The notes beneath the pieces are model-generated. The model did no database searches, was not told where the DNA came from, and saw nothing but the letters and a program-made list of their open reading frames with translations. The translations under genes were made by a program, and so were the position numbers. A stretch of 44,154 nt of DNA from contig CAMYLH010000001.1 of the NCBI GenBank assembly GCA_947259065.1, positions 1 through 44,154 on the forward strand, in the 5' to 3' direction. This DNA is from an uncultured Desulfobacterales bacterium. Its GTDB lineage: Bacteria; Desulfobacterota; Desulfobacteria; Desulfobacterales; JAFDCJ01. This document shows, piece by piece, positions 179-22,609 of this stretch. Position 1 is the stretch's first letter. Each line of letters starts with the position of its first letter.

Positions 179-1849
179 ATGACTGAGACCATGACCAATG
201 CCGACAATTTTTGGCTCTGCATGGATGAGCCCACCAATTTGATGATCATAACAGCGTTCATGGAATTTGAAGAGCCTGTGAATTTCAAACGCCTTTATGC
301 AACCATCGAAAGTCGTTTGGCGTCCTTTAAACGGTTCCAAAAGCGGGTCGTAAGACCGGTTTCAGGTGTGGGTGTTCCGAATTGGGAAAACGACAAAAAT
401 TATGATCTTAGATCCCACCTTCAACGAGTAGCCCTGCCGGCGCCGGGGGATAAGGCTGTCCTGCAGGAAATGATCAGCAATTTAATGACCACGCCACTGG
501 ACCCGAACAAACCTTTGTGGCAAGTCCACCTTATTGAAAACTATGGGAAAGGATGTGTTGTCTTTTTCCGGATTCACCACTGCATTGCCGACGGCATTGC
601 GCTGGTTCATGTCATGCTTTCCACCGCGGACACTGAACCTGACGCCCCATGGCCGCAATATCAACCTGAAAAGCGACGGGATTCCAATTCCCTTAAATCC
701 TTTTTTCCGGTTGGCAATATAATCAGCACGATAACCAGAACAATAAACACAACGAAAAATTATGGCTCAAAACTGCTGCAAGAAGGCGAAAAAACCTTAT
801 CCGATCCATCCCACCTGAAAGAGATCGCCAATACCACCACCGGTTTGACCTCGGATCTAGTTTCCATCCTTACCAAACTTACAATCATGCCTTCGGACCC
901 CAAAACACCGTTTAAAGGCAAGCTGGGTGTTCGAAAACGCGTTGCCTGGACCGAACCGATGTCGCTCGACAAGATTAAAACGGTTGGACGAGCGATCAGC
1001 ACGGCGACCCTAAACGATGTGCTAATCGCCACGGTTACCGGTGCGATGCGTCGATATCTGAAAACCAGGAATACGCCTGTAAATGAGCTTGACCTGCGGG
1101 TAGCGGTTCCGGTCAACATTCGAAAACCAGGAACTGAATTCGAGCTCGGCAACCGGTTCAGCCTGGTTTTTCTTGCTCTGCCGGTATATATTGACGATCC
1201 GATCTTGCGGCTCAAGGAAGTAAAACGGCGAATGGACCACCTTAAGAAATCGCCGGATGCCTTTATAAACTTCGGACTTCTTAGCGCCATGGGTCTCTTA
1301 CCGGCCAATATCACCAAGAGAACGGCTCATATGTTCGGCAATAAAGCTTCAGGTGTTCTCACCAATGTGCCGGGTCCGAAGCAGCCCCTTTATTTTGCCG
1401 GCAAAAAGATAAGCAATATTATGTTTTGGGTGCCCAGATCCGGCATGGTCGGACTGGGTGTCAGTATTTTCAGCTATGACGGAAAGGTTACCGTAGGTAT
1501 TGCTTCCGATGAGAGGCTCATGCCGGATCCGGAAGTCCTTTTAGAAGGTTTCGAAGAAGAATTTAACCGTCTTCTGGGGCTGGTACAGTCCGGAAAGATA
1601 TATGATGAACCACTTGTTTTGCATGATAGGTATCAAGAAACGCTAAGCACGGAAATGTCAAAAGGTGAAAAAAAATCGAGTAAGACTCATGATACAGGTC
1701 CCGCCCAATGCAAGGCCACTACGAAAAAAGGCAATCAGTGCAAAAACCGCGCCTTGCCGGGCTCCGGATATTGCGGCTCCCACAAGCGGTTAGAAAAAGA
1801 CACTAAAGTGCAGGATGTCGCGCGGATTATGAAAGCGCTGAATGAATAA
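179..1849 (+). CDS. Wax ester synthase/diacylglycerol acyltransferase (WS/DGAT) with C-terminal CCCH motif
   Basis: Intact HHCIADG (HHxxxDG) motif, PLW, TLNDV, TNVPGP; RBS AAGGAGG; tail C-x9-C-x10-C-x2-H. Confidence 0.95.
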   Translation: MTETMTNADNFWLCMDEPTNLMIITAFMEFEEPVNFKRLYATIESRLASFKRFQKRVVRPVSGVGVPNWENDKNYDLRSHLQRVALPAPGDKAVLQEMISNLMTTPLDPNKPLWQVHLIENYGKGCVVFFRIHHCIADGIALVHVMLSTADTEPDAPWPQYQPEKRRDSNSLKSFFPVGNIISTITRTINTTKNYGSKLLQEGEKTLSDPSHLKEIANTTTGLTSDLVSILTKLTIMPSDPKTPFKGKLGVRKRVAWTEPMSLDKIKTVGRAISTATLNDVLIATVTGAMRRYLKTRNTPVNELDLRVAVPVNIRKPGTEFELGNRFSLVFLALPVYIDDPILRLKEVKRRMDHLKKSPDAFINFGLLSAMGLLPANITKRTAHMFGNKASGVLTNVPGPKQPLYFAGKKISNIMFWVPRSGMVGLGVSIFSYDGKVTVGIASDERLMPDPEVLLEGFEEEFNRLLGLVQSGKIYDEPLVLHDRYQETLSTEMSKGEKKSSKTHDTGPAQCKATTKKGNQCKNRALPGSGYCGSHKRLEKDTKVQDVARIMKALNE

Positions 1850-1883
1850 CAATTGAATTCCATAGGTATAGAAAGGATAGGCC

Positions 1884-3678
1884 ATGCTACCTGAATATTT
1901 CGAATTTACACTCCCCACCAGGCTCGTTTACGGTATTGGAATTTTAGGCAACATCGACAATTCCATCAAGCATTTCGGCAACAGGCCCAGTGGATATCGT
2001 CAAAAAGGGCTTTGAAAACACCAACATCGAAATTGTCTGCAAATATGACAACGTCCCGCCCAACTCGACCATCAAAACCGTCAAAAGCTGCGCTCTGCTG
2101 GCCAAAAAGCATAAATGCGATATGATCATCGCCATTGGAGGCGGCAGCGTCATCGACACGGCCAAGGTCGCCAACATTCTCATTGTCAAAGGCGGCAAGG
2201 TAGAAGATCACATGGGCGCCTACCTTCTGGACAGAAATGAGGAGCTGCTGCCGGCAATTTTCATCCCCACCACGGCGGGAACCGGTTCGGAAGTGACCAA
2301 GGTGGCGGTAATTGCCGATCCGGATAATGATGTCAAGCTGCCCTTTGCCGAAGAGCAATTCCTGCCCCGGATGGCGATCCTTGATCCCGAAGTCACCGTC
2401 TCGATGCCGGGCAAACTGACCGCCGCAACGGGCATGGATGCCCTGACCCATGCAATTGAAGCCTATGTGGACAAGGAATGGTCGCCTGCCTCCGATGCCC
2501 TGGCGCTGCATGCAATCAAGCTTATCAGCAACAATATCCTTCAGGTCTGTGCCCATCCCGAGGACCTTATGGCCCGGGGTGCTATGCTTGCTGGCAGTTT
2601 TCTTGCCGGCGTGGCCTTTTCGCATTCCATGGTGGGCATGGTGCATGGCATCTCCCATGCGCTTGGCGGAGTTTATCATATTCCTCATGGGTTGGCCAAT
2701 GCACTGGTTTTGCCGGAAGTCATGCAGTTTAATTTAAAATCCAGACTGGCGCGTTATTCAGATATTGCCATGGCTTTGGGTGTCACATTTCCACAGGCAA
2801 TTCGTGAAAGCCGCAGCATGCTGGAATCCGGTCGGCTGGACTTTATTAAAAATAAGTTAATTCCAGTGGATTCTCTCAGGGATTGGATTGATACCCAATC
2901 TTTCAGGGCAAGGGGCCTTGCTTCAAAAGCGCTCGGCAATCTGCTATTTATCGATCAATGGTTCAGTAAGCAAGCCGCTGAAGCCGGCGTGGAAAAGATA
3001 CGGATTTTAACCCGCCAACTTTCGTATTTAACTAAAATGCCGCTTAACTTGAAAGATGCTGGGATCACCGACAACCTGGCCAAACTGGAGCAGGTGGCCG
3101 CTACCGCCATGGAAGATGGCGCCATGTTGTACAATCCCGTAGAACCCGATCGTGATGCGATAATCAAAATCGTCAAAAAATTATACTACACCCGAGTGGA
3201 ACCGCTGCCCGTATCGGAAGAAGACCTGCGTCCGCTGGCGTCAAAACGCGGCGGAAAGGAAATGAAAAATGTTTTTAAAGATACAGATGTGCTGTACAGT
3301 GTTTTTATGGCTTTTTATGAAGAGCTGAAAAATAATCCAGAAATCGGCCCTGCCCTGCAAAAAACCGATCTTTGCATTCAGTTCGTGTACAAAAACCCTG
3401 CCGCGGTCATTACAATTGATGCCGGAAAAAAGGATTTAATCATCCATAAAGGAGACTTCAAAGGAAGCCCTGAAGTCACCATGACCATGAATGCGGATTT
3501 CGCTCATAAATTCTGGCATGGCAAAGCCAATCTGGTATCGGCCTTAACCCGCCGGCAGGTGATTGCCAAAGGTAATGTCCCCAAGACCATTAAACTCCTT
3601 CCGATTTTAAAACCTGCTTATGCTCTGTATCCACGCTTTTTAAGGGAAAAGGGGCTGGGGCATCTGGTTATGGGATAA
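1884..3678 (+). pseudogene. Iron-containing alcohol dehydrogenase fused to SCP2 lipid-binding domain, frameshifted near 1980-1985
   Basis: ATG 1884 with RBS gives MLPEYFEFTLPTRLVYG (matches the paralog at 19096) but stops at 2013-2015; main frame 1990-3678 has GGGS, PTTAGTGSE, DALTHAIE, HGISH, HG and a C-terminal SCP2-like domain. Confidence 0.85.
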
Positions 3679-3706
3679 TCAACCCGCAAGCAACCTGGAG
3701 GAAACA

Positions 3707-5773
3707 GTGAAACAGATAGTCAGCATCAGCCTTGGACCCAGCAGCAAAGATTACGAATTTGAAACGGAATTTTTAGGCCAGAATTTTAACATCAAACGCT
3801 TTGGAGCCGACGGCGACATGGATAAAGCAGCGCGAATGTTGCTGGCATGGGATAACCGTGCAGACGCCCTGGGGCTGGGTAATATGAAATTTCCTAAAAC
3901 CATAGGCCCAATGCATTCGACGCAACAGCATGCTGAAAAATTAAATAAACTTTCGTCCACAATTCAAACTCCGGTAACCATGGGAAGTGCCTTGCGTGAG
4001 GTTGCTTTTGAATGGTCTCTTCGCTTTATCCAGTTTAAATTCGGCAACTATTTTAATAATGCCAGGGTGCTGTTTCTTTCCGGTCTGGACCAGCACAAAA
4101 TTGCCCAAGTCATGTCCGAATACACGGAAAATATCACCTTTGCCGATCCGGTTCTTGAAAACGGGATCCCAAAATTTTTAAATTCTATCAAAGAATTTGA
4201 ATTGTACGCCGGTGGTATTCATGAAGTACTGAATTGGGTCCCCAGCAAAAGCCTCTCATCTTCAGTCATGCCGATACGGGCCTGGAATGAATACATCATA
4301 CGAAAAGCCATGCAAAAAGCGAATATCATCGCTGTCCCGTATTATGACTTTTTTGGGTATTTAGAAAAGGCAACGCTTGAAGAACTGGGAGGTAAAACCA
4401 TCATCACTTCCACTGCTTATGATGATCGCATTGATTTTTTGAAGGAAGCGGGCGTAGATGTCGTTATTGATACAACCCCTAAAATTCTAGAGCGTGTTGT
4501 CGGGCACAATGTCCTTGAGGCTTTGATCCTTGCGGCCCTGGGAAGGAACCGGGACCAGGTCAGGGCTGATGATTTGCTGGAAATTATCAGCGATCAGAAA
4601 ATGGATCCCAGGATTGTATATCCTTCCGGGGACTCCAAAAGGGTAAACCGGTTTGCATTTGTTATCCATCCGCTTTCACAGGAATATTTTAAGAAGGTCG
4701 ATTCCATTGAAATTCTGTCAAAGGTGAGTCCTCCCGTATTCATGGATGCAGTCGAAAAGGTCATGGCCTACTCGCCGCCTATGATTTATTCAAAAGTGAC
4801 CGGAGTAAAATCACCCACTGGCGTAGAAGCGGAAGGTTGGCTTATCAGTGTGGGTGGGACTCCCCGGGAAATGCTGGCCCATAGTCCCGAGTTTACCTAT
4901 AAGCGATTGCTACAGGCCGCCAATACGGCAAAGCGGCTGGGCGCACAGATCATGGGACTTGGTGCCTTTACCAAGGTAGTGGGAGACGCCGGGGTGACCG
5001 TGGCAAAAAAAGCGGACATTCCCGTTACCACGGGCAACTCCTACAGCGCATCCGGGGCACTTTGGGCCGCCGCGGACGCCGTGCGTCGAATGGGATTGAT
5101 CAAGGTTGAAAAAGGAAAGAAAATTAAGGCCAGAACAATGGTTTTCGGGGCGACCGGCGCCATTGGTTCGGTCTGCTGCCGCTTGCTGGCAAAGGCCTTT
5201 AAAGAAGTTTGCATGGTGGGCCGTAATCCCGCCAAGCTGCTGGCTTTAAAAGAGGCGATCCACCAAGAGGACCCGGATGTTAATGTTCGAATGTCTACCA
5301 ATCCCGAAAAATTTTTGAAAGATATGGACCTCATTGTCACGGCAACCTCCGGCGCCGGTAAAGCCATCCTTGATATCATGCAAGTCAAGCCCGGCTGTGT
5401 CATTACGGATGTAGCGCGTCCCCTTGACCTGTCTCCCGAAGACGTTGCCAAACGTCCCGACGTGCTGGTAATTGAATCCGGAGAAATTGAACTGCCGGGT
5501 AATCCGGAAATGAAAAATATCGGTTTGCCCCCCAAAGTTGCCTATGCCTGTCTTGCTGAAACCATTGTTTTGGCTCTGGAAGGACGCTTTGAGATCTTTA
5601 CCATCGGGCGTGATATCGAATGGGAAAAGGTGAGAGAGATCTATAAAATGGGTCTTAAACACGGTATGAAACTTGCCGCCATTTCAGGGGTGAATGGGGT
5701 GTTTACGGATGAAGACATCGACAAGGTGAGAGAGCTTGCGCTTGCAGCCAGGAAGAATGGACTAAGGGCCTAA
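3707..5773 (+). CDS. Two-domain protein: unknown N-terminal domain plus acyl-ACP/acyl-CoA reductase (cyanobacterial AAR-like) domain
   Basis: FAFVIHP, SPTG, LGAFT, TTGNS, GATGAIG, YACLAE parallel the AAR motifs FGLIGH, SATG, LGGFT, TTGNT, GATGDIG, FACFAE; RBS GGAGG. Confidence 0.75.
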   Translation: MKQIVSISLGPSSKDYEFETEFLGQNFNIKRFGADGDMDKAARMLLAWDNRADALGLGNMKFPKTIGPMHSTQQHAEKLNKLSSTIQTPVTMGSALREVAFEWSLRFIQFKFGNYFNNARVLFLSGLDQHKIAQVMSEYTENITFADPVLENGIPKFLNSIKEFELYAGGIHEVLNWVPSKSLSSSVMPIRAWNEYIIRKAMQKANIIAVPYYDFFGYLEKATLEELGGKTIITSTAYDDRIDFLKEAGVDVVIDTTPKILERVVGHNVLEALILAALGRNRDQVRADDLLEIISDQKMDPRIVYPSGDSKRVNRFAFVIHPLSQEYFKKVDSIEILSKVSPPVFMDAVEKVMAYSPPMIYSKVTGVKSPTGVEAEGWLISVGGTPREMLAHSPEFTYKRLLQAANTAKRLGAQIMGLGAFTKVVGDAGVTVAKKADIPVTTGNSYSASGALWAAADAVRRMGLIKVEKGKKIKARTMVFGATGAIGSVCCRLLAKAFKEVCMVGRNPAKLLALKEAIHQEDPDVNVRMSTNPEKFLKDMDLIVTATSGAGKAILDIMQVKPGCVITDVARPLDLSPEDVAKRPDVLVIESGEIELPGNPEMKNIGLPPKVAYACLAETIVLALEGRFEIFTIGRDIEWEKVREIYKMGLKHGMKLAAISGVNGVFTDEDIDKVRELALAARKNGLRA

Positions 5774-5889
5774 TGCTTGGAGGATAGAGAGGTTGGCAGC
5801 GGGGAGGCCGAGATGTTTGAAGCCATTTTATAGCCTCCCGGTTTTCCAGCTTCCGAACTTATGGCTTCCATAAAAACCAGGAGACCGAT

Positions 5890-7953
5890 GTGAAACAAAT
5901 TGTAAATATCAGTCTGGGACCAAGCAACGACGATTATGAATTTAAGGGGAAATTTTTAGATCACAATTTTTATATCAGGCGTTTTGGCACGGATGGCAAC
6001 CTTGAAAAAGCTGAAGACCTGCTATTGCAATGGAATAAAAAGGCAGATGCTGTCGGTTTGGGGTATGTTAAATTTCCCTACACCATTGGACCCGGCATTC
6101 TGAATAAAGAAACCAAAGAATTGCAAAAGCTGGGATCTCAACTACAAATACCCGTGACGACTGGAGATACTTTGCGTAGCGTGGCGCATGAATGGTCTTT
6201 GCGTCATCTTCAGTTTCAATTCGGAGGTAATTATTTTACGAATGCAAGAGTGTTTTTTTTCTCGGGAATGGTGAATTCCACAATAGCAAAAGTTATGTCC
6301 GAATACACGGATAATCTCACCTTTGCCGACCCGGTCCTTGAAAACGGGATCCCGAAGTTTTTAAATTCCATCAAAGACCTTGAATTGTACGCCGGCGGAA
6401 TTCATGGCGTGCTGCAATGGGTACCCAGCAAACGCTTTTCTTCCGCGGCCATGCCTTTTCGTTTAGTAATTGAATATATTATGCGCAAAGCCGTGCAAAA
6501 AGCCCATATCATCGTGGTCCCGTATTATAATTTTTTCAGCTATCTGGAAGATTATACGGTTGATGATTTGAAGGGCAAAATTATTGTCACTTCCTCTGCC
6601 TATGATGACAGGGTTGAGTTCCTCAAGGAAAGAGGCGTTGATGTTATCATCGACACCACCCCGAAAGTTCTTGAAAAAGTTGTGGGAACGAGCGTGCTGG
6701 AGGCCATGATTCTTGCGGCTTTGGATATACCGTCAGGCCGGGTCAGACCTGACGATTTGCTGGAAATCATCAGCGAACAGAAAATGGACCCCAGGATTGT
6801 ATATCCGTCCGGCGAACCCAAGCGGGTCAATCGTTTTGCTTATGTCATCCACCCGCTTTCACAGGAATATTTGAAAAAAGTTAAACCCATTGAAATTTTA
6901 TCCGATATGGTTCCGGGAGTCATGGATACGGTGGAAAGGGTTGCAGCTTATGCGCCACCCTTTGTTTATTCCAAGGTAACCGGCATCAAATCACCGACCG
7001 GTGTTGAAGCGCAAGGATGGCTGATTGCCCTTGGCGAAACACCGGAACAAATGCAGTCCCACAGCCCTGAATTTACGACCGGCCGTATTCTGGAGGCGGC
7101 CAAAACCGCAAAACGACTGGGCGCCCAGATCATGGGAATAGGTATGCTCCCCAAGGCAATGAAAGACACCGGTGTGGAGGTGGCCAAACATGCCGTGCTG
7201 CCCATCACCACAGGAAACAGCTATGTTGCGTCAGCGGCGCTCTGGGCCGCTTCGGATGCCGTGCGCCGCATGGGGTTGATCAAGGTTGAAAAAGGAAAAA
7301 TGCTCAATGCCACAACAATGGTCATCGGCGCCACAGGCCCTGTGGGAGCGATTTGTTCCCGCCTGCTGGCAAAAGCCTTTAAACACGTCCATATGGTGGG
7401 CCGAAACATAGCCAAATTGCTCGCTTTACAGGAGTCCATTCGAGAAGAATCTCCTGAAGTAAAACTTCATGTTTCGACAAGGGCTGACAAGTACTTAATG
7501 GACATGGACGTCATCATCGCGGCAAGCTCGGGAGCCGGTAAAATCTTGGACATCATGAGAGTAAAGCCCGGCTGCGTTATCACGGATGTAACACGTCCTC
7601 TGATTTTTTCCCGGGAAGATGCGGCGAAACGTCCGGATGTAATGGTCATTCAAAGCGGAGAGATATTCCTTCCGGGAGATAATGTTGAAATGAAAGATAT
7701 CGGCCTGCCGCCAAAAACAGCATACGCCGGCCTTGCTGAAACCATTGTGCTAGCCCTTGAAGGACGCTTTGAATCCTTTACCGTGGGCAGCGACACCGAA
7801 TGGGAAAAAGTGAGAGAAGTCTATCGAATGGGCCTTAAACACGGCATGAAACTGGCTGCCATTTCAGGAGTGTCCGACGTGTTTTCGGATGAGGATATTC
7901 TCAAGGTAAAAGAGCTTGCGCTCAAGGAGATAATTAAAGCCGGGACACAATAA
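5890..7953 (+). CDS. Tandem paralog of the AAR-like protein lacking the catalytic Cys
   Basis: Colinear with 3707-5773; YAGLAE replaces YACLAE and GMLPK replaces GAFTK. Confidence 0.8.
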   Translation: MKQIVNISLGPSNDDYEFKGKFLDHNFYIRRFGTDGNLEKAEDLLLQWNKKADAVGLGYVKFPYTIGPGILNKETKELQKLGSQLQIPVTTGDTLRSVAHEWSLRHLQFQFGGNYFTNARVFFFSGMVNSTIAKVMSEYTDNLTFADPVLENGIPKFLNSIKDLELYAGGIHGVLQWVPSKRFSSAAMPFRLVIEYIMRKAVQKAHIIVVPYYNFFSYLEDYTVDDLKGKIIVTSSAYDDRVEFLKERGVDVIIDTTPKVLEKVVGTSVLEAMILAALDIPSGRVRPDDLLEIISEQKMDPRIVYPSGEPKRVNRFAYVIHPLSQEYLKKVKPIEILSDMVPGVMDTVERVAAYAPPFVYSKVTGIKSPTGVEAQGWLIALGETPEQMQSHSPEFTTGRILEAAKTAKRLGAQIMGIGMLPKAMKDTGVEVAKHAVLPITTGNSYVASAALWAASDAVRRMGLIKVEKGKMLNATTMVIGATGPVGAICSRLLAKAFKHVHMVGRNIAKLLALQESIREESPEVKLHVSTRADKYLMDMDVIIAASSGAGKILDIMRVKPGCVITDVTRPLIFSREDAAKRPDVMVIQSGEIFLPGDNVEMKDIGLPPKTAYAGLAETIVLALEGRFESFTVGSDTEWEKVREVYRMGLKHGMKLAAISGVSDVFSDEDILKVKELALKEIIKAGTQ

Positions 7954-7956
7954 ATC

Positions 7957-7985
7957 TTGATAAAAATGACGCGAAGCGTTATAAT
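7957..7985 (+). promoter_or_regulatory. Sigma70 promoter with degenerate operator
   Basis: TTGATA-N17-TATAAT; TGACGCGAAGCGTTA (7967-7981) matches 12/15 of the operator at 10470. Confidence 0.6.
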
Positions 7986-8192
7986 AAAGTCAATAATGGA
8001 CACACCAATAAATTAATGTATTGGAATTTCGACTTGTTATTGGCATCCGGCTTGTAGCGCCCACGCCCCGGAGAGAATAACGGTGCTTTTTGCAGCCATT
8101 CTATGGGTAAACCGCAATTTTTCTACGATCCTGAGGCCACCATTCCATTATTCCAATTGTGAGCAAAACGGATTTGTAGTACTGGAGGATAA

Positions 8193-10430: not shown

Positions 10431-10460
10431 ATGCTGAACCGGTGAACACTTAAAAAAGCC

Positions 10461-10489
10461 TTGACAATATAACGCAATGCGTTATATTG
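10461..10489 (+). promoter_or_regulatory. Sigma70 promoter overlapped by a perfect 12-bp inverted repeat (operator)
   Basis: TTGACA-N16-TATATT; CAATATAACGCA-A-TGCGTTATATTG at 10465-10489. Confidence 0.85.
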
Positions 10490-10568
10490 AACTTATGGTT
10501 GCCCCACAAAAAATGGATTCAATGGCACGTGCAAGGAAAGCGGCTGAAGGCTTTGATCGGAGGAAGTT

Positions 10569-11207: not shown

Positions 11208-11227
11208 GCGGAGGAAAAAACAACGGC

Positions 11228-12861: not shown

Positions 12862-13016
12862 TGTCAATATAAAATGTAGATACAACATTTTTTCATTTCA
12901 CTGGGGCCCTGTGGCTTACCAAGAGGATGGCCGCAAAAAACACTGTGATTCTCTCCGAGCTGTGGGCTCTGCGAGCCGGAGGCCAATAGATTGTATAAAT
13001 TCCGATACATTTTAAA

Positions 13017-13400: not shown

Positions 13401-13462
13401 AATTCCTCCTCTAAAGTAGTAGTATTTACACGTTAAGCGTTCATAGGTTCAAATCAGCTTCC

Positions 13463-15115
13463 CTATATGGAAAGGCGAAACTCCTCAAGCATATCGAACG
13501 AATCGTCGAGGGAGAGAACATCTAAAAGCATGGTGCGCATATTTTCGGGCATTTCATTTTCATACCGAGCAAAGTCTTCCATAAACTTTCTTGCCAGCTG
13601 AACAGCCCGCAATTCGTATTCTCCCTGGTCTTTGGCCATCCTGCGAGGATTGAGAATTGCCGCCGGCACTCCCGGGCATTCTTTTGGTATTTCAAATGAA
13701 AAGACAGGATCGGTTTCGTAGGCCACATCGTTCAGTTGGCCGGAAACAGCTGCGTAGACCAATTTACGGGTTTGTGCGATTTTTATCCGCTCTCCGCCGC
13801 CCCTGGGTTCGCCCAGCCACCCGGTATTGAGAAGCCAGCAGGAGACGTTATGTTTTTTGATCTTTCCCATCAGCAGGTTTCCGTAGACATGTGCCGGCAA
13901 TGTCAATGCTGAGGCGCCAAAGCAGGTGTCAAACCGGATATCGGTTTCGACGGGACCGGATTCGGTTTCAATGAATCTTGATGTATAGCCGGATAAAAAG
14001 GCATAGACCGCAAGTTCCGGTGAAAGGCGGGCAATCGGCGGCATGACCCCCAGGGCGTCGCAGGTGAGCAGGAAGATATTCCGAGGGTGATCACAGACAC
14101 CTTCAACAACTGCATTCGGAATGTGGGTATCCGGATAAACAGCTCTGGTATTATCCGTCAGGGCGTCATCGTTCAGATCCACCCGCCGGGTTTCCAAATC
14201 GATGGATACATTTTCCAAAATACTGCCGAATTTTCGGGTGCATGCAAAAATTTCCGGTTCTTCTTCTTTTGAAATTTTCAAAACCCTGGCATAGGAACCC
14301 CGTTCAAAATCAAATAAGCCCTTGTCACTCCAGCCGTGTGCATGATCGCCAATAAGTCTTCGCTCCGGATCCACCGCAAGGGTTGTCTTTCCGGTTCCGC
14401 CCCGGCCCAGAAAGATGGCCACATCCCCATCCGGCCCTATATTCGCTGAACAGCGCAAGGGAAAAACAGACTCCAGAGGGAGAAGATAATTGAGAATGGT
14501 AAAAACTACCTGCCTGATCTCACCGCCATAGTGGGTGCCGCAGATAAATGCCGCTTTCTGTCCCAGGCTGACGATGACGAAAGCGGAAGAACCAGTGCCG
14601 TCCACCTCCGGCATGGCATGGAATCCGGGAATATGAACAACCGTAAAATCCGGATCATATGCTTCAAAGTCTACAGCATCCTGAATCGGAAGGAACATAT
14701 TTCGCACAAAAAGATTGTGCCAGGCTGTTTCTGTTATAAATCGAATGGAGGTCCGATAATCCGGATCACGGCCGGCATAACAATACTGAACATAAACTTC
14801 CTTGTTTTGCATGTAAGCAAGGAGACGATACAGCAAATTATTAAACCGCTCTTCGGATATGGGCCTATTCTCATCACCCCAGGACACTTTTTCTTCACTG
14901 GCAGGTTCTTTTACGATGAATTTATCCGTCAGAGACCGTTCCGCAAAATCTCCTGTCCGCACGACAACCGGTCCCATATGGGAGACCTGCCCTTCTCGAT
15001 TCTTGATGATTTGTTCATACAACAGAGGCGTGGGAAGATTTCTGTGAACGACTTTAAGGTACTTACGCCCAATGGCGACAAAATCCGGAATACCATCTTT
15101 TCTATCGATTAACAT
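13463..15115 (-). CDS. ATP-dependent PEP carboxykinase homolog with degenerate metal site
   Basis: Full-length PckA fold motifs (AWHNLF, CSAN, GTGKTTL, HGW, NTR, NTGW), but GEIRQ, LRCSAN, GDHAH replace GEMKK, MHCSAN, GDDEH. Confidence 0.9.
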   Translation of the reverse strand: MLIDRKDGIPDFVAIGRKYLKVVHRNLPTPLLYEQIIKNREGQVSHMGPVVVRTGDFAERSLTDKFIVKEPASEEKVSWGDENRPISEERFNNLLYRLLAYMQNKEVYVQYCYAGRDPDYRTSIRFITETAWHNLFVRNMFLPIQDAVDFEAYDPDFTVVHIPGFHAMPEVDGTGSSAFVIVSLGQKAAFICGTHYGGEIRQVVFTILNYLLPLESVFPLRCSANIGPDGDVAIFLGRGGTGKTTLAVDPERRLIGDHAHGWSDKGLFDFERGSYARVLKISKEEEPEIFACTRKFGSILENVSIDLETRRVDLNDDALTDNTRAVYPDTHIPNAVVEGVCDHPRNIFLLTCDALGVMPPIARLSPELAVYAFLSGYTSRFIETESGPVETDIRFDTCFGASALTLPAHVYGNLLMGKIKKHNVSCWLLNTGWLGEPRGGGERIKIAQTRKLVYAAVSGQLNDVAYETDPVFSFEIPKECPGVPAAILNPRRMAKDQGEYELRAVQLARKFMEDFARYENEMPENMRTMLLDVLSLDDSFDMLEEFRLSI

Positions 15116-15204
15116 GACAACTCCTCTTTAGGTAGTGTCCGTTGTTCGTTATCGGTTGGTAGTTGTTTTCGTATTCACAACTAAGAGGCTCCAAACCATC
15201 CCAC

Positions 15205-17397
15205 TCACCGAATAGCACCACTGGAAGTGAGAGCATAAATAACCAGTTTTTGCATCATCTTCTCTTTTCCGGTGGTTGGATGATCCAGTTGCATTCTTTG
15301 AAGATAAGGTTTTGCTTTTTCCGGTACGGATCTTATCGTCATGGCTTTGCCAAAACTCGATGCCTTGCCGCCCAGACCTTCAGCCATTTTTTCTTTTAAC
15401 CCCCTGAGCGCCTTTCCGAGGGCGAGCTCTTCTTTTGTAAAATCAGTGCCAAAAGGAAAGGGCGGGAAAAGTCCTTTTTTCTTGAAAGGGGCCATATTTT
15501 TTTCAATCCGCTCAGGAAGATTATTTTTGAACTGTGTGGGGATTTGATAATCATCTGGAATCTTTTGAGCACTTTTTGCTTTTTGCAGCAATTCATCCTG
15601 GAATCTGGAATCAGTGATATTCAGCAAGGCCGCAATGACATCCTTGTCACTCTTGGCCCTCAGGTCGGCGATGCCGTATTCCGTGATAACAATGTCCCTT
15701 AAATGCTTGGGGATGGTTATATGCCCATATTTCCAGACGATATTTGAACTGACATCTTTCCCTTTTAACCTTGTACTCTTGACCATTAAAATCGAACGAC
15801 CATCCGGCAAGGCATGGGCCTGGGATACAAAATTGTACTGCCCCCCGACTCCGCTGACCATCTGGCCGCTTTCCAGCCCGTCCGAGCAAACCGCGCCCCT
15901 CAGTGTGGCCATGAGGCAGGCATTGACAAACCGGCCATGTCTTCTTTGCAGCAGTTTTAGTTCTTCGTCTCCGTACCGGTTTCCATAAAGCTGGTTCACG
16001 TTGAGAACGCTTGTCATGTGAATTTGCCGGCGTTCCTCGTCTGTCATATTGTTTAGTTCATCGTAAAAACGGTTGGGACCAAGGAAAAAGCCGCCGTGAA
16101 TAAGGATTCCTTTTTTCAGTTTTGTACCCAGGCAAGTTTTAACAACCTTATCCAGGTTCTTTTCATCGTTCAAATCAGCCGGAATATGGATCTTTCCTTT
16201 AATAATATGACTTTTCTCAAAGCGCAACGCTTCCTTGAAAATACCGAATTCCTGAAGAAGCTGAAAGTTTTCCCGGGTAAGTTTGGGTCTTACTGCCTTT
16301 TCTTCAAGCAACACGGTCAAGGTCCTAGGGGTTATCTTTTCCTTGATCTTGCCTTCGTTTATAAGTCTTTGAATATGTATATTATTATAAGTCTTTCGTT
16401 TCACAACACCGCATTTTAACAAATGCAGGTACCCGTCAACCAGCATCTCAGTCGACCCCACCAGTCCCTGTTTGAACTCCTCAACTCCGCCCACATTGTA
16501 TATGGTTTTGCTGAATTTATTCACAATTTCAGATTTCTTCAGCACGGCTTGATATTGATCGTTTTGCTGCTGCCGCAACTGCAAGCCGTAGCACAGTGCA
16601 TCCCCCAGGGAGCCGATGCCGATCTGAAGCGTACCCCCGTCTTTTATTAATGAGCTCGCATGAAGCCCGATCGCGTAATCCGTGGAGGTCACCGCCATTT
16701 TCGGGGCGCTGAACAACCTGAAGTTATAGTCGGGATGGTCCAGAATATCGGTAAAGAGCTCCGGTTCCACCACCGCGTCTCCATACATAAACGGCAGGTT
16801 CTGGTTGATTTGAGCGATAATGGCAATTTTTTTTCCTGCCTTTTCCAGATTTCTCATACCGTCGACCACGTCAAGGGTGACTTCCGGGTTGCAGCTCGTA
16901 CTGAAATAGGTCTTGTTATCCATCGTACCCTTGCAGACAATTTGGGCCACCACATTGACCTCGTTTATCAATATGTCTCTGTAGGCATGGGTATAATTGG
17001 AACTGATATAATTCTGCTGGACATGTCGGATTTTGAGGTATGCACCGGCCTTGGTGTAAAATTCCTTTACCTCGACATTTGACGGAAGCTCTCCTTTTCT
17101 GAGAGCTTTGACGTACTCTAAATCAATATACCCGCCAAAGACCCTTTCAATGAAGGGCTCTATAAACCTTCGCTCCAGCTCGGTGGTCGGTGTCGGTCTT
17201 TCCAGGGATAAGGCTGTAATTATGGTAAGATTCATACCCGAGTCTTCCTTGACGCGTCTATACAGTTCGTTTGCCACATGGTTTGCCTTCCCCAGCCCGA
17301 GCGGCATGCCAAGAACAATATTCTTGCCGACCCTTTTTATCACTTCATCAACACATTTCTCGACACTCTGATAAAAAAAGGGTTTATATTTGCTCAT
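15205..17397 (-). CDS. Long-form acetyl-CoA hydrolase/CoA-transferase family protein
   Basis: PLGLGK, TLQIGIG, STEML, GVGGQYNFV, TEYGIADLR; start moved to ATG 17397 after RBS GGAGG. Confidence 0.9.
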   Translation of the reverse strand: MSKYKPFFYQSVEKCVDEVIKRVGKNIVLGMPLGLGKANHVANELYRRVKEDSGMNLTIITALSLERPTPTTELERRFIEPFIERVFGGYIDLEYVKALRKGELPSNVEVKEFYTKAGAYLKIRHVQQNYISSNYTHAYRDILINEVNVVAQIVCKGTMDNKTYFSTSCNPEVTLDVVDGMRNLEKAGKKIAIIAQINQNLPFMYGDAVVEPELFTDILDHPDYNFRLFSAPKMAVTSTDYAIGLHASSLIKDGGTLQIGIGSLGDALCYGLQLRQQQNDQYQAVLKKSEIVNKFSKTIYNVGGVEEFKQGLVGSTEMLVDGYLHLLKCGVVKRKTYNNIHIQRLINEGKIKEKITPRTLTVLLEEKAVRPKLTRENFQLLQEFGIFKEALRFEKSHIIKGKIHIPADLNDEKNLDKVVKTCLGTKLKKGILIHGGFFLGPNRFYDELNNMTDEERRQIHMTSVLNVNQLYGNRYGDEELKLLQRRHGRFVNACLMATLRGAVCSDGLESGQMVSGVGGQYNFVSQAHALPDGRSILMVKSTRLKGKDVSSNIVWKYGHITIPKHLRDIVITEYGIADLRAKSDKDVIAALLNITDSRFQDELLQKAKSAQKIPDDYQIPTQFKNNLPERIEKNMAPFKKKGLFPPFPFGTDFTKEELALGKALRGLKEKMAEGLGGKASSFGKAMTIRSVPEKAKPYLQRMQLDHPTTGKEKMMQKLVIYALTSSGAIR

Positions 17398-17563
17398 AAA
17401 GTAACCTCCGAATCGATTTTCGGGTTTCGATGAATATGGATACACTGAGAATATTTACAAGATCTATTCGTAACAGAATCGGAATCGAATATCAACAAAA
17501 CTTCCCACGAATCCAGGGTGTCGTCAAAGTCATTACATCAATCATGTCTGGACAAAAATTGAC

Positions 17564-17629
17564 TCACGCAACGCCGCAACGACGCCACGCTGTCTATAAA
17601 TTTCGTTGCGTCGTAGCGTCGTAGCGTGA
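17564..17629. repeat. Imperfect hairpin built from 8-nt ACGC(A/T)ACG units
   Basis: Three units on the left arm mirrored by three CGT(A/T)GCGT units on the right. Confidence 0.65.
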
Positions 17630-17767
17630 AAATTTCATAATTTTACTAAAATAGTGGAATTTCAAAGTGATATGCGAAAGAATGACGTGGCCCTGCCCAC
17701 GAATCCGGGAAGTACTAAAAAACTTGTATGCCCTATATCTTTCTGTTAAAGTCTAACATACTCAATT

Positions 17768-18082
17768 GTGAAAATAACTTTTAACGAAGACCCAGTTACA
17801 GGTAACTTTTTATGACTGGCAGCCCTATATTCCCGCCATGATCCCATTCCTTTCATCATAAAATATACCCGAAGCTACAACCCTGCGATTTGGAAAATTC
17901 TTGATGACTGGGGAATCGGACGTCTGCCCCTTTATATTGAAAGGGAACGTGAATTCGTCAATATTTATCGAGGCCATGATATTGCAAGAAAGCTTTCTGA
18001 TGAAGAATTTGAAAAGCTTTTGAAGTTCACGCGCGCCGCCTTTGAAATGGCCCTTCATTTTATCTCTGAAGAAGGAACTTAG
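17768..18082 (+). CDS. Hypothetical 104-aa frame with one in-frame TGA (not in the ORF track)
   Basis: GTG-KITFNEDPVTGNFL-TGA(17813)-LAALYSRHDPIPFIIKYTRSYNPAIWKILDDWGIGRLPLY...EEGT-TAG. Confidence 0.45.
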
Positions 18083-18187
18083 CTGCCTGTGGCGGGACTT
18101 TTTCGACAGGATTAACAAGATTGTTTTCTATTTTTATCCTGAACATCCTGTCTCTAGGGATCGAAAATCATGGCTCCGCAATAGGTG

Positions 18188-18730
18188 TTACAGTGCACAA
18201 GCTTGGAGTACTTCTTCTGTTGGTGGATGGTCCCCGGCTTTCTGACTGCGATAAACATAGTGTACGATATTACCGGGGCCAACCACCAACACCCCGCCCT
18301 GTTGCAAAGGTGGGCCTTGAATTCCCTTCTGCAAAAAACCGGTGCTCAGCGCACGGATTCCCGCTTTCAGTGGGTTTAATCCTATCACAGAGGTAAGACC
18401 TTTCTTAAAATCCAGGATTTTATAAGTTTCCAGAGAAGGATCGGTGAATAATGGACCCTTGTATCCGGTATCTTCCCTGAAAGGCGTGATAAAATGCTCC
18501 GGCCCGTTGCCAATCACCACCAATTGAGCATTTTTTTTCTTAAAGGCCTTCATGTTTTTATTTAGATCGGCAACCTGCCGACGGCTGATCATTCAACCGA
18601 AATGCCTGATAAATACCAGGACAACTCTTTTATCTTTCCACAATGCAGCTAGCATCTCCGGGTTTCCTTTTTCATCCAATACGATTTGCCGACCTAATTT
18701 TTGTAATGTTTGACCGTCCATATTCATCAT
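18188..18730 (-). CDS. Selenoprotein, peroxiredoxin-like AhpC/TSA (SelU/SelL/PRXL2-type)
   Basis: Reading through TGA 18595-18593 gives LWKDKRVVLVFIRHFG-U-MISRRQ...DP...QQGG; RBS AAGGAAGG; start may be 18730, 18727 or 18721. Confidence 0.9.
18567..18581 (-). promoter_or_regulatory. Bacterial SECIS element
   Basis: UCGGCA-GGU-UGCCGA stem-loop starting 11 nt after the UGA; resembles the E. coli fdhF apical hairpin. Confidence 0.85.
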
Positions 18731-18836
18731 CCTTCCTTGAAATTAATGCGCTAAGCGGACCATGGGATCGTTTCAGGAGCGCCGAGCGCCTCCTGATTTA
18801 TTGATTGAATTCAATGTTTCGTGTAACAGTAAATCC

Positions 18837-18865
18837 AAATTAACGCATTGCGTTATATTGTCAAG
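18837..18865 (-). promoter_or_regulatory. Sigma70 promoter/operator nearly identical to the phaR-like promoter
   Basis: CTTGACAATATAACGCAATGCGTTA is identical over 25 nt to 10460-10484; -10 TAATTT. Confidence 0.85.
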
Positions 18866-19095
18866 CCTTTTCCCTATTTTTTTCATGAGCCGAACACTGC
18901 AACATCGCCCTTTCGAGTTTCGCAATGAATGGGCAATTATCACCGCCCCAGCTGTCGGGCTTCAGGGGAAATACAGTTTAAAGGTTATTGACATTGAGCA
19001 ATTTACACGATAACCATCTTTTTTAAAAATCTTCTTTATTCCCGCTTTTTTTTAGGGTGAGACAGACCCATTTATTTCAGACAAGGAGGGACCTC

Positions 19096-20271
19096 ATGCT
19101 GCCGGAATTTTTTGAGTTCTATAACCCGACCAAGGTGGTATACGGCGCGGGGATTGCGTCGGATTTCCGGGCTGAACTTGATGCACTAGGGGTGGAAAAA
19201 TATTTTATCGTATCCGATAAGGTCATTCGTGATCAAGGCCTTGTAAAAAAGGTGGCGGATGGGCTCACATCAGCAGGCATCACGGTTACTGGTGAGTTCC
19301 TGGATGTGCCACCCAATTCAGCGATTAAGACGGTCAATTCATGCGCCGAGCAGGCGAAATCGTCCGGTGCTCAAGGCCTTATTGCCATCGGCGGGGGCAG
19401 CGCCATTGATACCGCTAAAGCTGCCAACATTTTAATTTCCGAAGGCGGTGATTTGGTAGAGGATTACTCAGGAATTCATACCCTTACCCGGCCGTTAAGC
19501 CCCCTGGTTGTCATACCTACGACCGCCGGAACGGGCAGCGAGGTAACAATGGTTTCAGTAATCTACGATGAGAAAAACAAGGAAAAATTGGCCTTTAGCG
19601 ATAAATTTCTCCTTCCCAGTCTGGCTGTACTCGATCCGGAGATGACGACCTCCATGCCGCCGGCCCTGACCGCATCTACAGCCATGGACGCCCTGACTCA
19701 TGCTATTGAGGCTTACGTCGGCACAGGCTGTTCGCCTGTTTCCGATATCTTTGCCGCCGGAGCGGTAGAACTCATTTTCAAGAACATCTTGCAGGCCACG
19801 GAAAATGGGGAGGACCTGGAGGCTCGCGGCAGTCTGCTGGTGGCGGCCAATCTTGCCGGTACTGCCTTTTCCCACTCCATGGTAGGTTGCGTGCATGGTA
19901 TGGCCCACGCAACCGGTGCGCTTTATCATGTACCCCATGGTATCGCCAACGCCATACTCTTGACTCACGGCATGGAATACAATTTTGATGAGATCAAAGA
20001 AAAACTTACCAAACTTGCACCTTTCATGGGTGTAGAGATCTCCGGTCTGTCAGTTGAAGATTCGGCCAAAAAGACCATCGAAGCGGTGAGAAGTCTCACT
20101 GAAAAGTTGAATGGGTTGGGTGCATTGCCCTTGAGGCTTCGGGATGTTGGCGTTCCGGAGGAGGGCCTGCCGGAGCTTGCCGAGTATGCGGTTAATGACG
20201 GTACCAGCTGGTTTAACCCGCGTGAGGTCGTCGCGGAAGAAATATTGCTGCATTTAAAAAACGCTTATTAA
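19096..20271 (+). CDS. Iron-containing alcohol dehydrogenase
   Basis: GGGS, PTTAGTGSE, DALTHAIE, HGMAH, PHG; start at ATG 19096 after AGGAGG. Confidence 0.95.
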   Translation: MLPEFFEFYNPTKVVYGAGIASDFRAELDALGVEKYFIVSDKVIRDQGLVKKVADGLTSAGITVTGEFLDVPPNSAIKTVNSCAEQAKSSGAQGLIAIGGGSAIDTAKAANILISEGGDLVEDYSGIHTLTRPLSPLVVIPTTAGTGSEVTMVSVIYDEKNKEKLAFSDKFLLPSLAVLDPEMTTSMPPALTASTAMDALTHAIEAYVGTGCSPVSDIFAAGAVELIFKNILQATENGEDLEARGSLLVAANLAGTAFSHSMVGCVHGMAHATGALYHVPHGIANAILLTHGMEYNFDEIKEKLTKLAPFMGVEISGLSVEDSAKKTIEAVRSLTEKLNGLGALPLRLRDVGVPEEGLPELAEYAVNDGTSWFNPREVVAEEILLHLKNAY

Positions 20272-20300
20272 TTCATTTGTCGTTATTAAGGAGGATATTG

Positions 20301-20714
20301 ATGGGACTATTTAATGATTCAGAGACGTTTGAAAAACTGCTCGGAGGTTTTTTCAAACTCATGGCTGATACGCCGGTGATAGCAGATAAGCTGCTCGCTT
20401 CAAATCTTATCGTCAGGTTCAGATACAGTGATCCGGATGTTGTGATAGTCGTAGACTGTTCAGGCGATAGAGTAGATGTAAGGCCTGGAGACAGGGAAAC
20501 AAAGGAAATCGTTGACATGTCCATGAGTGCCGACATCGCTCACAAGTTTTGGTTCGGCAAGGTGAACTTAATGGCAGCCCTGACACGCAAGCAGATGATA
20601 GCAAAAGGTCCCATCCCCAAAATATTGAAACTTCTTCCCGCAATTAAGCCTTCTTATGCCATGTATCCGAAGTATCTCGAGGAAAACGGCTACGCTGAAT
20701 ATAATATTTATTAG
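20301..20714 (+). CDS. SCP2 sterol/acyl-binding domain protein
   Basis: MSADIAHKFWFGKVNL..AL...KG matches the C-terminus of the 1884-3678 fusion; RBS AAGGAGG. Confidence 0.85.
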   Translation: MGLFNDSETFEKLLGGFFKLMADTPVIADKLLASNLIVRFRYSDPDVVIVVDCSGDRVDVRPGDRETKEIVDMSMSADIAHKFWFGKVNLMAALTRKQMIAKGPIPKILKLLPAIKPSYAMYPKYLEENGYAEYNIY

Positions 20715-20725
20715 GAGGGAACAAC

Positions 20726-22609
20726 ATGGGCGGATATGCAGGCAAAATACTTTACATCGATCTTACATCCGGCAATATCGAATCAAAACCCCTTGATTCA
20801 AAATTTGCTCGAGCGTACATCGGCGGTCTCGGCTTCAGTACCCGCATCTACCTGGACCTGATAAAGGATAAGCCCGAATTTGATGCCCTTTCCGCCGATA
20901 ATCCCTTCGTACTCATGACCGGTCCTTTGACCGGTATGAAAATGGACGCAGTGGCCAGGTGGACTCTCGGCACCAAATCACCGCTTACCGGTTTATGGGG
21001 AGACAGCAACATCGGTGGCTACTTCGGTGCCGAACTGAAATTTGCCGGTTATGATGGTATGGTGGTGACAGGAGAAACTGATAAGCCGACCTGTATCTAC
21101 ATCGATGATGATACGGTGCGGCTAAGGGATGCAAACAAATATTGGGGCATGGACGCATACACCGCCAACGATGAAATCATCGCTGATTACAAGGGTGAAT
21201 CAAGAAAGTCAGGCCAGGTTTTAACCATCGGTCCCGCCGGTGAAAATCTGGTAAGGTTCGCATCGCTGATCAACAAGAAGGGACATGCGGCCGGGCGCAC
21301 CGGCGTGGGGGCGGTATGGGGTGCCAAGAAACTCAAAGCCATCTTTGTCAGGGGGACCGGGAAGCTTGAAGCAGCCCACCCGGATAAACTCAAAAACCTC
21401 CGAGAAGAACTAAAAGAAGTGTATGACGGCAACATCACCATAGAGGCCTTGCGCGCATTTGGGACGGCTTCGCATATGGATGTCGGCATCATTTCCGGCG
21501 ACGTTCCCATGAAAAACTGGCAGAAGACCGAATGGGACCTATTTGATGAGATCGGTCCGGTGGTATACAGTGAAAAAATCCTGACCGGCAAAAAGACATG
21601 CCATGCCTGCGGCGTGGCATGTAAAAGAGAGGCAGAAGTAAAGGAAGGACCCTTTAAGTTTGAAAAGGGTCCGGGTCCCGAATACGAGACCATCGGCACG
21701 TTTGGGACCATGTGCTTGAACTCCAGCATAGAATCCATCGGCAAGGCAAACGAGATTTGCAACCGGTACGGCATGGATACCATTACCTGCGGAGCCACCA
21801 TCGCCTTTGCCATTGAGTGCTTTGACAATGAGCTGATAACCGAAAAGGACACCGATGGCCTGAAGCTCACCTGGGGCAACTCCGAGGCCATTGTTGCAAT
21901 GGCTGAAAAGATCGGAAAGCAAGAAGGATTTGGTGCGATTCTGTCCAAAGGCAGCGCCGCAGCTGCAAAACACATCGGTGGCAACGCATCGGACTTTCTG
22001 ACGACGGTTAAGGGTCTCGAAGCACCCATGCACGATCCCAGGTCCGCTCACGGCTATGGTTTGGCCTATGCCGTTTCCCCCAGAGGGGCGTGTCATAATG
22101 CCAGCCTCAACTATGCCCTCGAAGGCGGTATGATGTATCTGCCCGAATTCGATGATGAGCTAGGTGAAATTACAGGGATGAGCAGCGCGGGCAAAGCGAA
22201 AATTAACATCATCAGCCAGGACTTCGGGATGTTTTTTTCGAGCTGTGCAGTTTTCTGCAACCTGGGTGCATCGATCCTGAACGCGACTCAGGCTGTGGAT
22301 ATGGTAAATCATGTCACGGGATTTAACTACACCCTTGAGGAATTAATGAAACTCGGCAAAAAGATATGGTACATCAAACGAGGGTTGTCAAACCTGTTCG
22401 GAGACAGAGCAAAGGACGACAAGCTGCCCAAAAGACTTATGACACCAATGGAAACGGGTCCTACAGAGGGAAGTGTGCCGGATATGGACCTGATGTTGAA
22501 AGAGTTTTACGAGTTGCGCGGGTTAAATGATGACGGTGTTCCTAAAAAAGAGATCCTTGAGAGACTCGGCTTATCAGGCCTGGCGCAGCTTCTGCACCAT
22601 AGGCCATAG
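20726..22609 (+). CDS. aor: Aldehyde:ferredoxin oxidoreductase (W/Mo-pterin)
   Basis: KSPLTG, ELKFAGYD, IGPAGEN, AGRTG.GAV.G.K, CHACGVAC, EYET, GMDTI, HDPR, RGACH. Confidence 0.95.
   Translation: MGGYAGKILYIDLTSGNIESKPLDSKFARAYIGGLGFSTRIYLDLIKDKPEFDALSADNPFVLMTGPLTGMKMDAVARWTLGTKSPLTGLWGDSNIGGYFGAELKFAGYDGMVVTGETDKPTCIYIDDDTVRLRDANKYWGMDAYTANDEIIADYKGESRKSGQVLTIGPAGENLVRFASLINKKGHAAGRTGVGAVWGAKKLKAIFVRGTGKLEAAHPDKLKNLREELKEVYDGNITIEALRAFGTASHMDVGIISGDVPMKNWQKTEWDLFDEIGPVVYSEKILTGKKTCHACGVACKREAEVKEGPFKFEKGPGPEYETIGTFGTMCLNSSIESIGKANEICNRYGMDTITCGATIAFAIECFDNELITEKDTDGLKLTWGNSEAIVAMAEKIGKQEGFGAILSKGSAAAAKHIGGNASDFLTTVKGLEAPMHDPRSAHGYGLAYAVSPRGACHNASLNYALEGGMMYLPEFDDELGEITGMSSAGKAKINIISQDFGMFFSSCAVFCNLGASILNATQAVDMVNHVTGFNYTLEELMKLGKKIWYIKRGLSNLFGDRAKDDKLPKRLMTPMETGPTEGSVPDMDLMLKEFYELRGLNDDGVPKKEILERLGLSGLAQLLHHRP

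Follow-up and report, generated by a model that had tools for sequence, protein, structure and literature searches.

A conserved gene cluster of Desulfobacterales with a probable role in wax ester synthesis and storage

Genes of the cluster and their conservation

The window analysed here is a 44,154-nt contig (CAMYLH010000001.1; C1 of the source assembly G000, GCA_947259065.1) from an uncultured Desulfobacterales bacterium, and its positions 179 to 22609 carry a gene cluster that a preliminary description, made from the letters alone, took for a complete wax ester and lipid-body system. The genes named there were borne out by Pfam and NCBIfam, at their places and with their domains. Five of them, all on the forward strand, form a core: WS1 (179-1849), a wax ester synthase/diacylglycerol acyltransferase (WS/DGAT); Fe-ADH-SCP2 (1884-3678; PF00465, PF25137, PF02036), an Fe-alcohol dehydrogenase (ADH) fused to an SCP2 lipid-binding domain; the paralogous reductase-family genes RED1 (3707-5773) and RED2 (5890-7953); and PhaR-phasin (10569-11207), a PhaR DNA-binding domain fused to a phasin-like domain. 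WS2-lipase (8193-10430, forward) precedes PhaR-phasin, and an ABC1/UbiB-type atypical kinase identified by profile matches (11228-12861, forward) follows it.

The source assembly comprises 4.7 Mb in 929 contigs and is 79.7% complete and 5.5% contaminated. The contig begins 178 nt 5' of WS1; relatives carry a phasin and a patatin gene there, and neither was found in this incomplete assembly. The nearest named homologs of the reductase come from Desulfobacterales bins (93-94%) and the Olavius Delta 1 endosymbiont (93%), and because of these relatives we infer that the host is a sulfate reducer (dsr genes were not part of the search).

We sampled 151 genomes of the order evenly, with a completeness of 85% or more and with G000 added. 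The reductase occurred in 27 of the 151, WS/DGAT in 25, both in 24 and neither in 123; each set covers 21 genera, and related genomes are not independent counts. Within the window's own genus the cluster is patchy, with 2 of 22 other genomes carrying it. We also compared 70 loci with flanks of up to 10 kb, many on short contigs (a further locus, L089, was excluded as too short). WS1 lay within 10 kb of a reductase gene in 44 and directly upstream in most loci. Other recurring families were PhaR-phasin (29 loci), Fe-ADH (28), a 582-aa hydrolase (27), a phasin-like protein (23), a FFLEELY-motif protein (22), patatin (16) and a second PhaR (15), and the ABC1 kinase occurred as the window's subtype in 7 loci and as a second subtype in 14. 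Where a recurring neighbor can be named, it is a lipid or granule protein (phasin, PhaR, patatin, hydrolase, ABC1 or acyl-CoA-binding protein). The conserved core of WS/DGAT, RED1, RED2, Fe-ADH-SCP2 and PhaR-phasin is thus real and well delimited. A check of synteny across genomes, as the preliminary description had proposed, found this core co-conserved but the peripheral genes only loosely linked: the selenoprotein was seen in 3 loci, the CoA-transferase in 1, aldehyde:ferredoxin oxidoreductase (AOR) in 1 and phosphoenolpyruvate carboxykinase (PEPCK) in none.

The FFLEELY-motif protein (NF047641), found at positions 2469-3125 of locus L033 and in 21 other loci, acquires a lipid-storage context through its recurrence in the cluster.

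Two genes of the window, Fe-ADH-SCP2 and the ABC1 kinase, were confirmed as present but are frameshifted in G000. The former has its true ATG at 1884 and lacks 41 nt near 1984 relative to locus L020; its homologs in relatives are intact (611-613 aa), and its GGGS and Asp/His metal-ligand motifs are visible. The latter lacks 61 nt near 11986 relative to L020. These breaks are likely assembly errors, since the essential isoleucyl-tRNA synthetase (IleRS) gene is likewise frameshifted and G000, the one assembly counted in this way, holds 102 near-tandem 20-mer duplications, 55 of them out of frame. On contigs C213, C701, C36, C93 and C903, rpoB is present twice and IleRS, a thiolase gene and a phaC are frameshifted, so that both strain mixing and local misassembly are evident. 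Mapping of four DNA runs neither confirmed nor bridged either frameshift in any row or piece listed. Pieces 90-99% identical to positions 3000-22900 occur in four RNA-library runs; being contigs, they give no indication of transcription.

Enzymes of the core and their probable PhaR control

RED1 is a 688-aa protein with two AAR (acyl-ACP reductase) folds, a degenerate N-terminal module and a C-terminal AAR/PigE-like thioester reductase half, which holds all of its cysteines, including the catalytic Cys615. Residues 315-655 match the PigE N-domain (E 1e-27) and AAR (E 6e-13), and Cys615 aligns with Cys294 of AAR and Cys296 of PigE. The predicted model (pLDDT 87.8) has AAR as its top fold match (Foldseek TMt 0.67-0.74). 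The N-terminal 308 residues, folded alone, reached a pLDDT of 91.7, and BLASTP detected no significant similarity between the two halves. For this predicted N half, VIA-align placed AAR first (Z 14.4, rmsd 4.5, 252 residues aligned), then TAD (13.3), with the next, unrelated match at 9.7; Foldseek was ambiguous, ranking AAR sixth among binding proteins, so that the separation comes from VIA-align alone. Many proteins of about 300 aa in a representative library (P0182-P0270) match the whole N-terminal module, so other lineages may have it as a stand-alone or split protein.

RED2 is a full-length RED1 paralog with about 70% identity. Among 102 reductases from the loci, the catalytic Cys is retained in 65 of 66 RED1-class proteins and in none of 36 of the RED2 class, which have Gly in 35 cases and Ser in one; RED2 is therefore likely a conserved pseudoenzyme, usually encoded directly downstream of RED1. 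Both of the AAR-like reductases announced in the preliminary description are present, but the pair probably amounts to one enzyme and one partner that lacks the catalytic Cys.

By the tests applied, RED1 falls outside the AAR, PigE, FarA, AcrB and FcrA families. Both reductases miss the AAR cut-off of TIGR04058 (70.4 and 44.1 bits versus 449.7), and a domain scan found neither NAD_binding_4 nor an HMG-CoA reductase domain in them. With cyanobacterial AAR (PDB 6jzq, 6jzu, 6jzy) RED1 shares the fold of both halves and, in its C-terminal half, the catalytic Cys, TTGN motif and Rossmann glycines; it differs in being only about 22% identical and twice as long, in having a conserved Cys-less paralog, and in being partnered with an ADH, whereas no aldehyde-deformylating oxygenase was found among the window open reading frames (ORFs) scanned (the genome was not searched for one). 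The best sequence match is the N-terminal thioester reductase of PigE (NF053554; PDB 4ppm sequence), and it is limited to PigE residues 1-356: unlike PigE, RED1 carries no class III transaminase domain and sits among lipid-storage genes. The accessible part of PMC8341465 describes thioester-to-aldehyde reduction by PigE on lysate evidence, names the Cys and reports that purified PigE was inactive. In locus L111 a small ferredoxin-like gene (10420-10695) lies just 5' of the reductase, as it does in 39 of the loci L019-L089; none was found in the loci of the two genus relatives of G000.

Reductases of the established types were searched for in the 50 genomes that carry the cluster reductase ("carriers"). 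Strong NAD_binding_4 matches (FAR/AcrB-like, FAR being fatty acyl reductase; E < 1e-30) occurred in 7 carriers, a count that omits 21 further carriers with weak, shorter matches only, and HMGR/FcrA-like genes in 7; G000 had neither. Since the union of the two types is 11, neither was found in 39 of 50 carriers, G000 among them. The claim that an AAR-type reductase plus Fe-ADH stands in for a classical FAR thus gains support from these searches, and co-occurrence, synteny, catalytic residues and fold point the same way. In three genomes (G049, G055, G056) a PRK07201-type, AcrB-like reductase (L100 282-2399; L099; L108) lies 9-16 kb from ADH2-SCP2-AOR, the triplet described below.

Both WS/DGATs exceed the TIGR02946 cut-off of 309.95 bits (WS1, 395.7; WS2, 355.7). 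The active-site motif of WS1 is intact (HHCIADG, fitting HHxxxDG). The second WS/DGAT, correctly described as joined to a lipase (an alpha/beta-hydrolase domain with GQSLGG), reads HHSIIDR in both copies seen and so deviates from HHxxxDG. The fusion was found in 1 of 70 loci and in the window's own genus only; a stand-alone homolog of its lipase adjoins the cluster in 3 loci.

WS1 ends in a CCCH tag (1709-1783) that weakly resembles DUF5763/HGGxSTG (E 0.001, below cut-off) and the N-terminus of GvpO. The strict pattern occurs in 38 of 46 WS1 orthologs, with a near variant in 4 more, in all six copies of a 127-aa protein, and in none of 571 unassigned neighboring ORFs. In G000 only two plausible proteins carry it, WS1 and the 127-aa protein (13017-13400, reverse strand), a helical protein and candidate granule component found in 5 of 70 loci. 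The tag had been proposed to tie the locus together; it exists, but being limited to these two proteins it makes no such tie. Our guess is that it is a zinc-binding localization tag.

The regulator half of PhaR-phasin and its phasin half score above the cut-offs of PF07879 (PHB_acc_N; 81.8 bits versus 25) and PF05597, and the protein falls below the equivalog cut-off of TIGR01848 (67.6 versus 109.45). The shared operator noted in the preliminary description is real. Its consensus, ATRAYGCRNYGCRTYAT, occurs with at most one mismatch at three window sites, against none in 100 shuffles, and at five sites in the whole assembly including these three. The site at 7966-7982, with one mismatch, lies upstream of WS2-lipase and is also found in L020; that at 10469-10485 is perfect and lies upstream of phaR-phasin, just 3' of a TTGACA hexamer; and that at 18840-18856 lies in the gap between the selenoprotein gene and the divergently oriented ADH2-SCP2-AOR.

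Because the consensus was refined from window and ortholog sites, upstream regions of orthologs offer a fairer test. Allowing up to three mismatches to a fixed 17-mer, with one site able to serve divergent genes, we found the box upstream of phasin in 24 of 24 cases, WS1 in 18 of 40, phaR in 7 of 31, a second patatin in 4 of 5, the selenoprotein in 2 of 4, WS2 in 2 of 2 and ADH in 2 of 30, with a background of 5 in 519 other ORFs and 0 in 96 reductases. A strict palindrome search had given only 11 sites in the loci, and the regulon emerged once mismatches were allowed. The promoter region of WS1 itself is largely lost at the contig end; its L020 ortholog has the box about 200 nt upstream. The box core equals the experimentally supported PhaR motif of S. 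meliloti, YGCRNYGCR, with AT-rich arms, as given in the available part of PMC12542648. As in the PhaR/AniA-phasin circuit covered there, PF07879 occurs together with a palindrome (GC-N3-GC here) before phasin genes and phaR's own gene; here, by contrast, WS/DGAT, patatin, selenoprotein and ADH-SCP2-AOR genes have the box upstream as well, and the regulator carries a fused phasin domain and occurs in genomes with no detectable phaC. Synteny and the conserved box likewise support the proposal that PhaR-phasin is a granule coat protein. The ABC1 kinase may also reside on lipid bodies, judging from its gene context.

A proposed wax ester pathway and its alternatives

We consider it probable that this cluster makes wax esters that are stored in phasin-coated bodies under PhaR control. 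We base this reading on the genes present, the predicted folds, the catalytic residues, the co-occurrence data and the conservation of the box. RED1 would load a long-chain acyl group from CoA or acyl carrier protein onto Cys615 and, with NAD(P)H, form the aldehyde by reduction; Fe-ADH-SCP2 would convert aldehyde to alcohol, with SCP2 carrying the chain; and WS1 would join the alcohol to a second acyl-CoA. Neither RED2 nor the N-terminal module of RED1 would be catalytic; they would serve as scaffold or regulator. PhaR-phasin would repress boxed promoters until titrated by lipid bodies, as PhaR is by polyhydroxyalkanoate (PHA) granules. Less certain is a recycling arm in which a lipase or patatin, ADH2-SCP2-AOR and the CoA-transferase, which are not co-inherited with the core, would return the wax to metabolism.

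The system likely works as bacterial wax ester storage does, with an unstudied two-step reductase route in place of the familiar ones. In Acinetobacter and Marinobacter (Acr1 plus an aldehyde reductase, or FarA/AcrB) and in the FcrA route of PMC11948995, as far as the accessible part of that paper goes, a WS/DGAT with HHxxxDG is likewise fed by a fatty acyl reductase, and the two-step aldehyde route is a precedent for this cluster. The reductase here differs in being a double AAR fold rather than a short-chain dehydrogenase/reductase (SDR), NAD_binding_4 or HMGR protein, and the cluster adds a dedicated Fe-ADH-SCP2, PhaR control and a host from an order of sulfate reducers. An engineered Synechococcus pathway of AAR, ADH and WS/DGAT yielded wax esters and lipid bodies, according to the available part of PMC3594298; the reaction order is the one proposed here, and this locus would be a natural counterpart to that synthetic route, which, as described there, has no coat or regulator. 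In the portion of PMC11948995 available, FarA, AcrB and FcrA are assigned to 1%, 31% and 26% of WS/DGAT-bearing bacteria, many are left with no known reductase, and the aldehyde reductase of the two-step route is termed unknown. The cluster supplies testable candidates for both, and is a source of new enzymes with which fatty alcohols and waxes could be produced. The ADH of the engineered Synechococcus pathway is reportedly of a different family.

Our literature search, thin on subscription papers and supplements, found no description of this cluster and no report of wax ester or fat storage in sulfate reducers. The accessible part of PMC10351704 (2023) states that wax ester or triacylglycerol (TAG) accumulation was unreported in Deltaproteobacteria, which made up 5-14% of WS/DGAT sequences in Subantarctic subtidal sediments, and that gene context could not be analysed there. 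A wider picture is possible, and we hold it only tentatively: about one in six genomes of the order would encode an unrecognized wax ester organelle program with a new class of fatty acyl reductase, in which one live AAR module is joined by dead partners, Fe-ADH-SCP2 as the long-sought dedicated fatty aldehyde reductase, a PhaR paralog rewired from PHA to wax-body sensing, and the AOR arm as a reversible buffer of carbon and electrons in anoxic sediment.

Several observations weigh against the wax reading. The reductase occurs with no WS/DGAT in three genomes (G154, G173, G180), although G154, the sole single-contig genome of this kind (its coordinates are those of L081), has Ser in place of the Cys, which speaks for the wax reading; and one genome, G138, has WS/DGAT and no reductase, its WS/DGAT still neighboring homologs of PhaR, ABC1 and the 127-aa protein. 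Betaproteobacterial and actinobacterial homologs of the reductase have no WS/DGAT within 10 kb. RED1 lies far under the AAR cut-off (70 versus 450 bits), and an Acr1-type SDR reductase may exist elsewhere in the genome. The electron donor is unsettled, the small ferredoxin that adjoins the reductase in 39 of 71 loci not having been found in G000. Fe-ADH-SCP2 and the ABC1 kinase are broken in G000, and read mapping left the reality of the breaks undecided. To these are added the fold shared with the carmabin TAD domain, TAG as a possible product and phaC-like genes in carriers, all taken up below.

The cluster could instead be mainly catabolic, with environmental wax hydrolysed, the alcohol oxidized to acyl-CoA by ADH and then by AOR or by RED1 acting in reverse as an acylating aldehyde dehydrogenase, and WS/DGAT merely buffering toxic intermediates. 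The frequent hydrolases (the 582-aa hydrolase and patatin counts given above), the conserved ADH2-SCP2-AOR triplet and an acyl-CoA synthetase-like gene adjoining the cluster in G137 (judged on N-terminal sequence only) fit this, and both redox steps are reversible in principle; we nonetheless regard it as unlikely, for phasins and the PhaR box point to an intracellular store, and the reductase tracks WS/DGAT almost 1:1 while close orthologs of the triplet's SCP2 occur in only 11 of 49 carriers. It is also unlikely, in our view, that WS/DGAT makes TAG or another neutral ester while the alcohol from reductase and ADH goes elsewhere, for example into ether lipids. WS/DGATs are bifunctional, according to the part of PMC3594298 that is accessible, a 2026 preprint (10.64898/2026.07.24.740503), as far as available, uses marker genes to predict that Desulfobacterota store TAG, and a reference title records alkyl ether lipids of sulfate reducers; against this, WS1 lies immediately 5' of the reductase genes in most loci, and no phosphatidate phosphatase or glycerol acyltransferase was seen among the recurring neighbor families scanned. 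Least probable is some other thioester chemistry of an AAR-fold protein, leading to a specialized lipid and not a storage wax. TAD ranked beside AAR in both fold searches, and the extra dead module and the pseudoenzyme also count in its favor; yet the top sequence matches, PigE and AAR, are thioester reductases, the partner that recurs is an ADH or SCP2-ADH, and the recurring neighbors scanned included no transaminase or polyketide synthase/nonribosomal peptide synthetase family. The carmabin TAD domain has reportedly been proposed to act in thioester chemistry.

PHA raises the remaining question. The absence of phaC noted earlier holds for the window and the cluster, but elsewhere in G000 contig C93 carries class III phaC-phaE and C903 another phaC; these account for both of its PhaC_N matches, and a second PhaR (154 aa) lies on C508. 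With PhaC_N matches in 32 of 49 carriers too, the coat proteins could also bind PHA. That PhaR-phasin, phasin and ABC1 simply serve granules made by a phaC elsewhere seems very unlikely to us. Across the 151 genomes, PhaR-family genes occur in 79 and PhaC_N in 61; all 25 WS/DGAT genomes carry PhaR, and 8 of these gave no PhaC_N match, though in 2 of the 8 TIGR01836 gave sub-cut-off homologs. In the other six (G032, G138, G141, G142, G200, G218; 93-99% complete) no PHA synthase was found with PF07167 or TIGR01836. Several genomes with both systems (G031, G137, G155, G169, G190, G208) keep a separate PhaR paralog beside phaC, and no box was found at the phaC-phaE of G000. The six genomes and the separate paralogs favor the view that coat and sensor are devoted to what WS/DGAT makes, though they may bind PHA too. 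The cluster also suggests that PhaR-phasin feedback is not confined to PHA.

Flanking genes and other observations

The description of the locus as a complete system went too far: the CoA-transferase, PEPCK, selenoprotein, WS2-lipase and ADH2-SCP2-AOR mostly lie elsewhere or were not found in other carriers. As 10-kb flanks under-sample genes 8-17 kb away from RED1, we re-tested the CoA-transferase and SCP2, though not the selenoprotein and PEPCK, genome-wide. The acetyl-CoA hydrolase/transferase-family protein (15205-17445, reverse; profile match, no box) was found in 19 of 49 carriers; it shares a contig with the reductase in just two, G070 and G077, and in the own genus it is linked in G041. 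ADH2 (19096-20271; profile match), the stand-alone SCP2 protein (20301-20714; E 5e-4, about 40% identical to the fused SCP2) and AOR (20726-22609), all on the forward strand, form a conserved triplet that is usually distant from the cluster. The close SCP2 orthologs counted above (at least 70% identity) lie beside the reductase in one genome; G137 has ADH2-SCP2 inside the cluster, and L105, a contig of the own genus, keeps the window's order from ABC1 to AOR. The ATP-dependent PEPCK (13463-15115, reverse; profile matches) adjoins the cluster in own-genus loci only and is likely a passenger.

The selenoprotein (18188-18730, reverse) is a SelL-related, AhpC-like protein with an in-frame TGA at 18595-18593 and a hairpin just downstream. 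Of five orthologs examined, four retain the TGA and the fifth has a scrambled 5' part, and selA is present in G000; with the TGA, hairpin and selenocysteine machinery all found, readthrough is predicted. The NF040769 score was 63.4 against a cut-off of 120, only the stretch after the TGA having been scanned. Despite their loose linkage, the selenoprotein and ADH2-SCP2-AOR carry the PhaR box in some genomes: 2 of 11 ADH2-SCP2-AOR upstream regions have it, and it precedes ADH2 also in G041 and in G088, where it is perfect and distant from the cluster. The CoA-transferase, selenoprotein, AOR and SCP2 are accessories, not a co-inherited unit, and the mobilization, antioxidant and electron-sink arms proposed for them are unproven beyond the supported core. 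The ADH and AOR redox steps are reversible in principle, which is the sole basis of the electron-sink idea.

A 102-nt inverted repeat (8015-8116 and 12910-13011) was considered as a regulatory link and rejected because 12950-12984 behaves as a multicopy repeat. Multicopy extragenic repeats lie at 12950-12984, 8015-8116 and 22617-22780, the copy after AOR being very deep in RNA-library contigs. An imperfect ACGC/GCGT inverted repeat 5' of the CoA-transferase (17560-17640) does not fit the PhaR box.

Next to AOR, a chimeric ORF (22955-23518, reverse) joins an SDR N-terminus to the C-terminus of a thiamine pyrophosphate (TPP) enzyme. Since G042 has separate genes for a 296-aa SDR and a 577-aa TPP enzyme at the same place, about 2 kb appears to be missing, whether in reality or by assembly error; as a guess, the TPP enzyme is an aldehyde-producing lyase. 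Farther along the window lie a third Fe-ADH (31192-32346), a trypsin-tetratricopeptide repeat protein followed by a hotdog thioesterase (34654-36596), two dynamin-like GTPase genes in tandem (37286-41058, reverse; 597 and 659 aa) and a DEDD exonuclease-GIY-YIG fusion (41475-43256).

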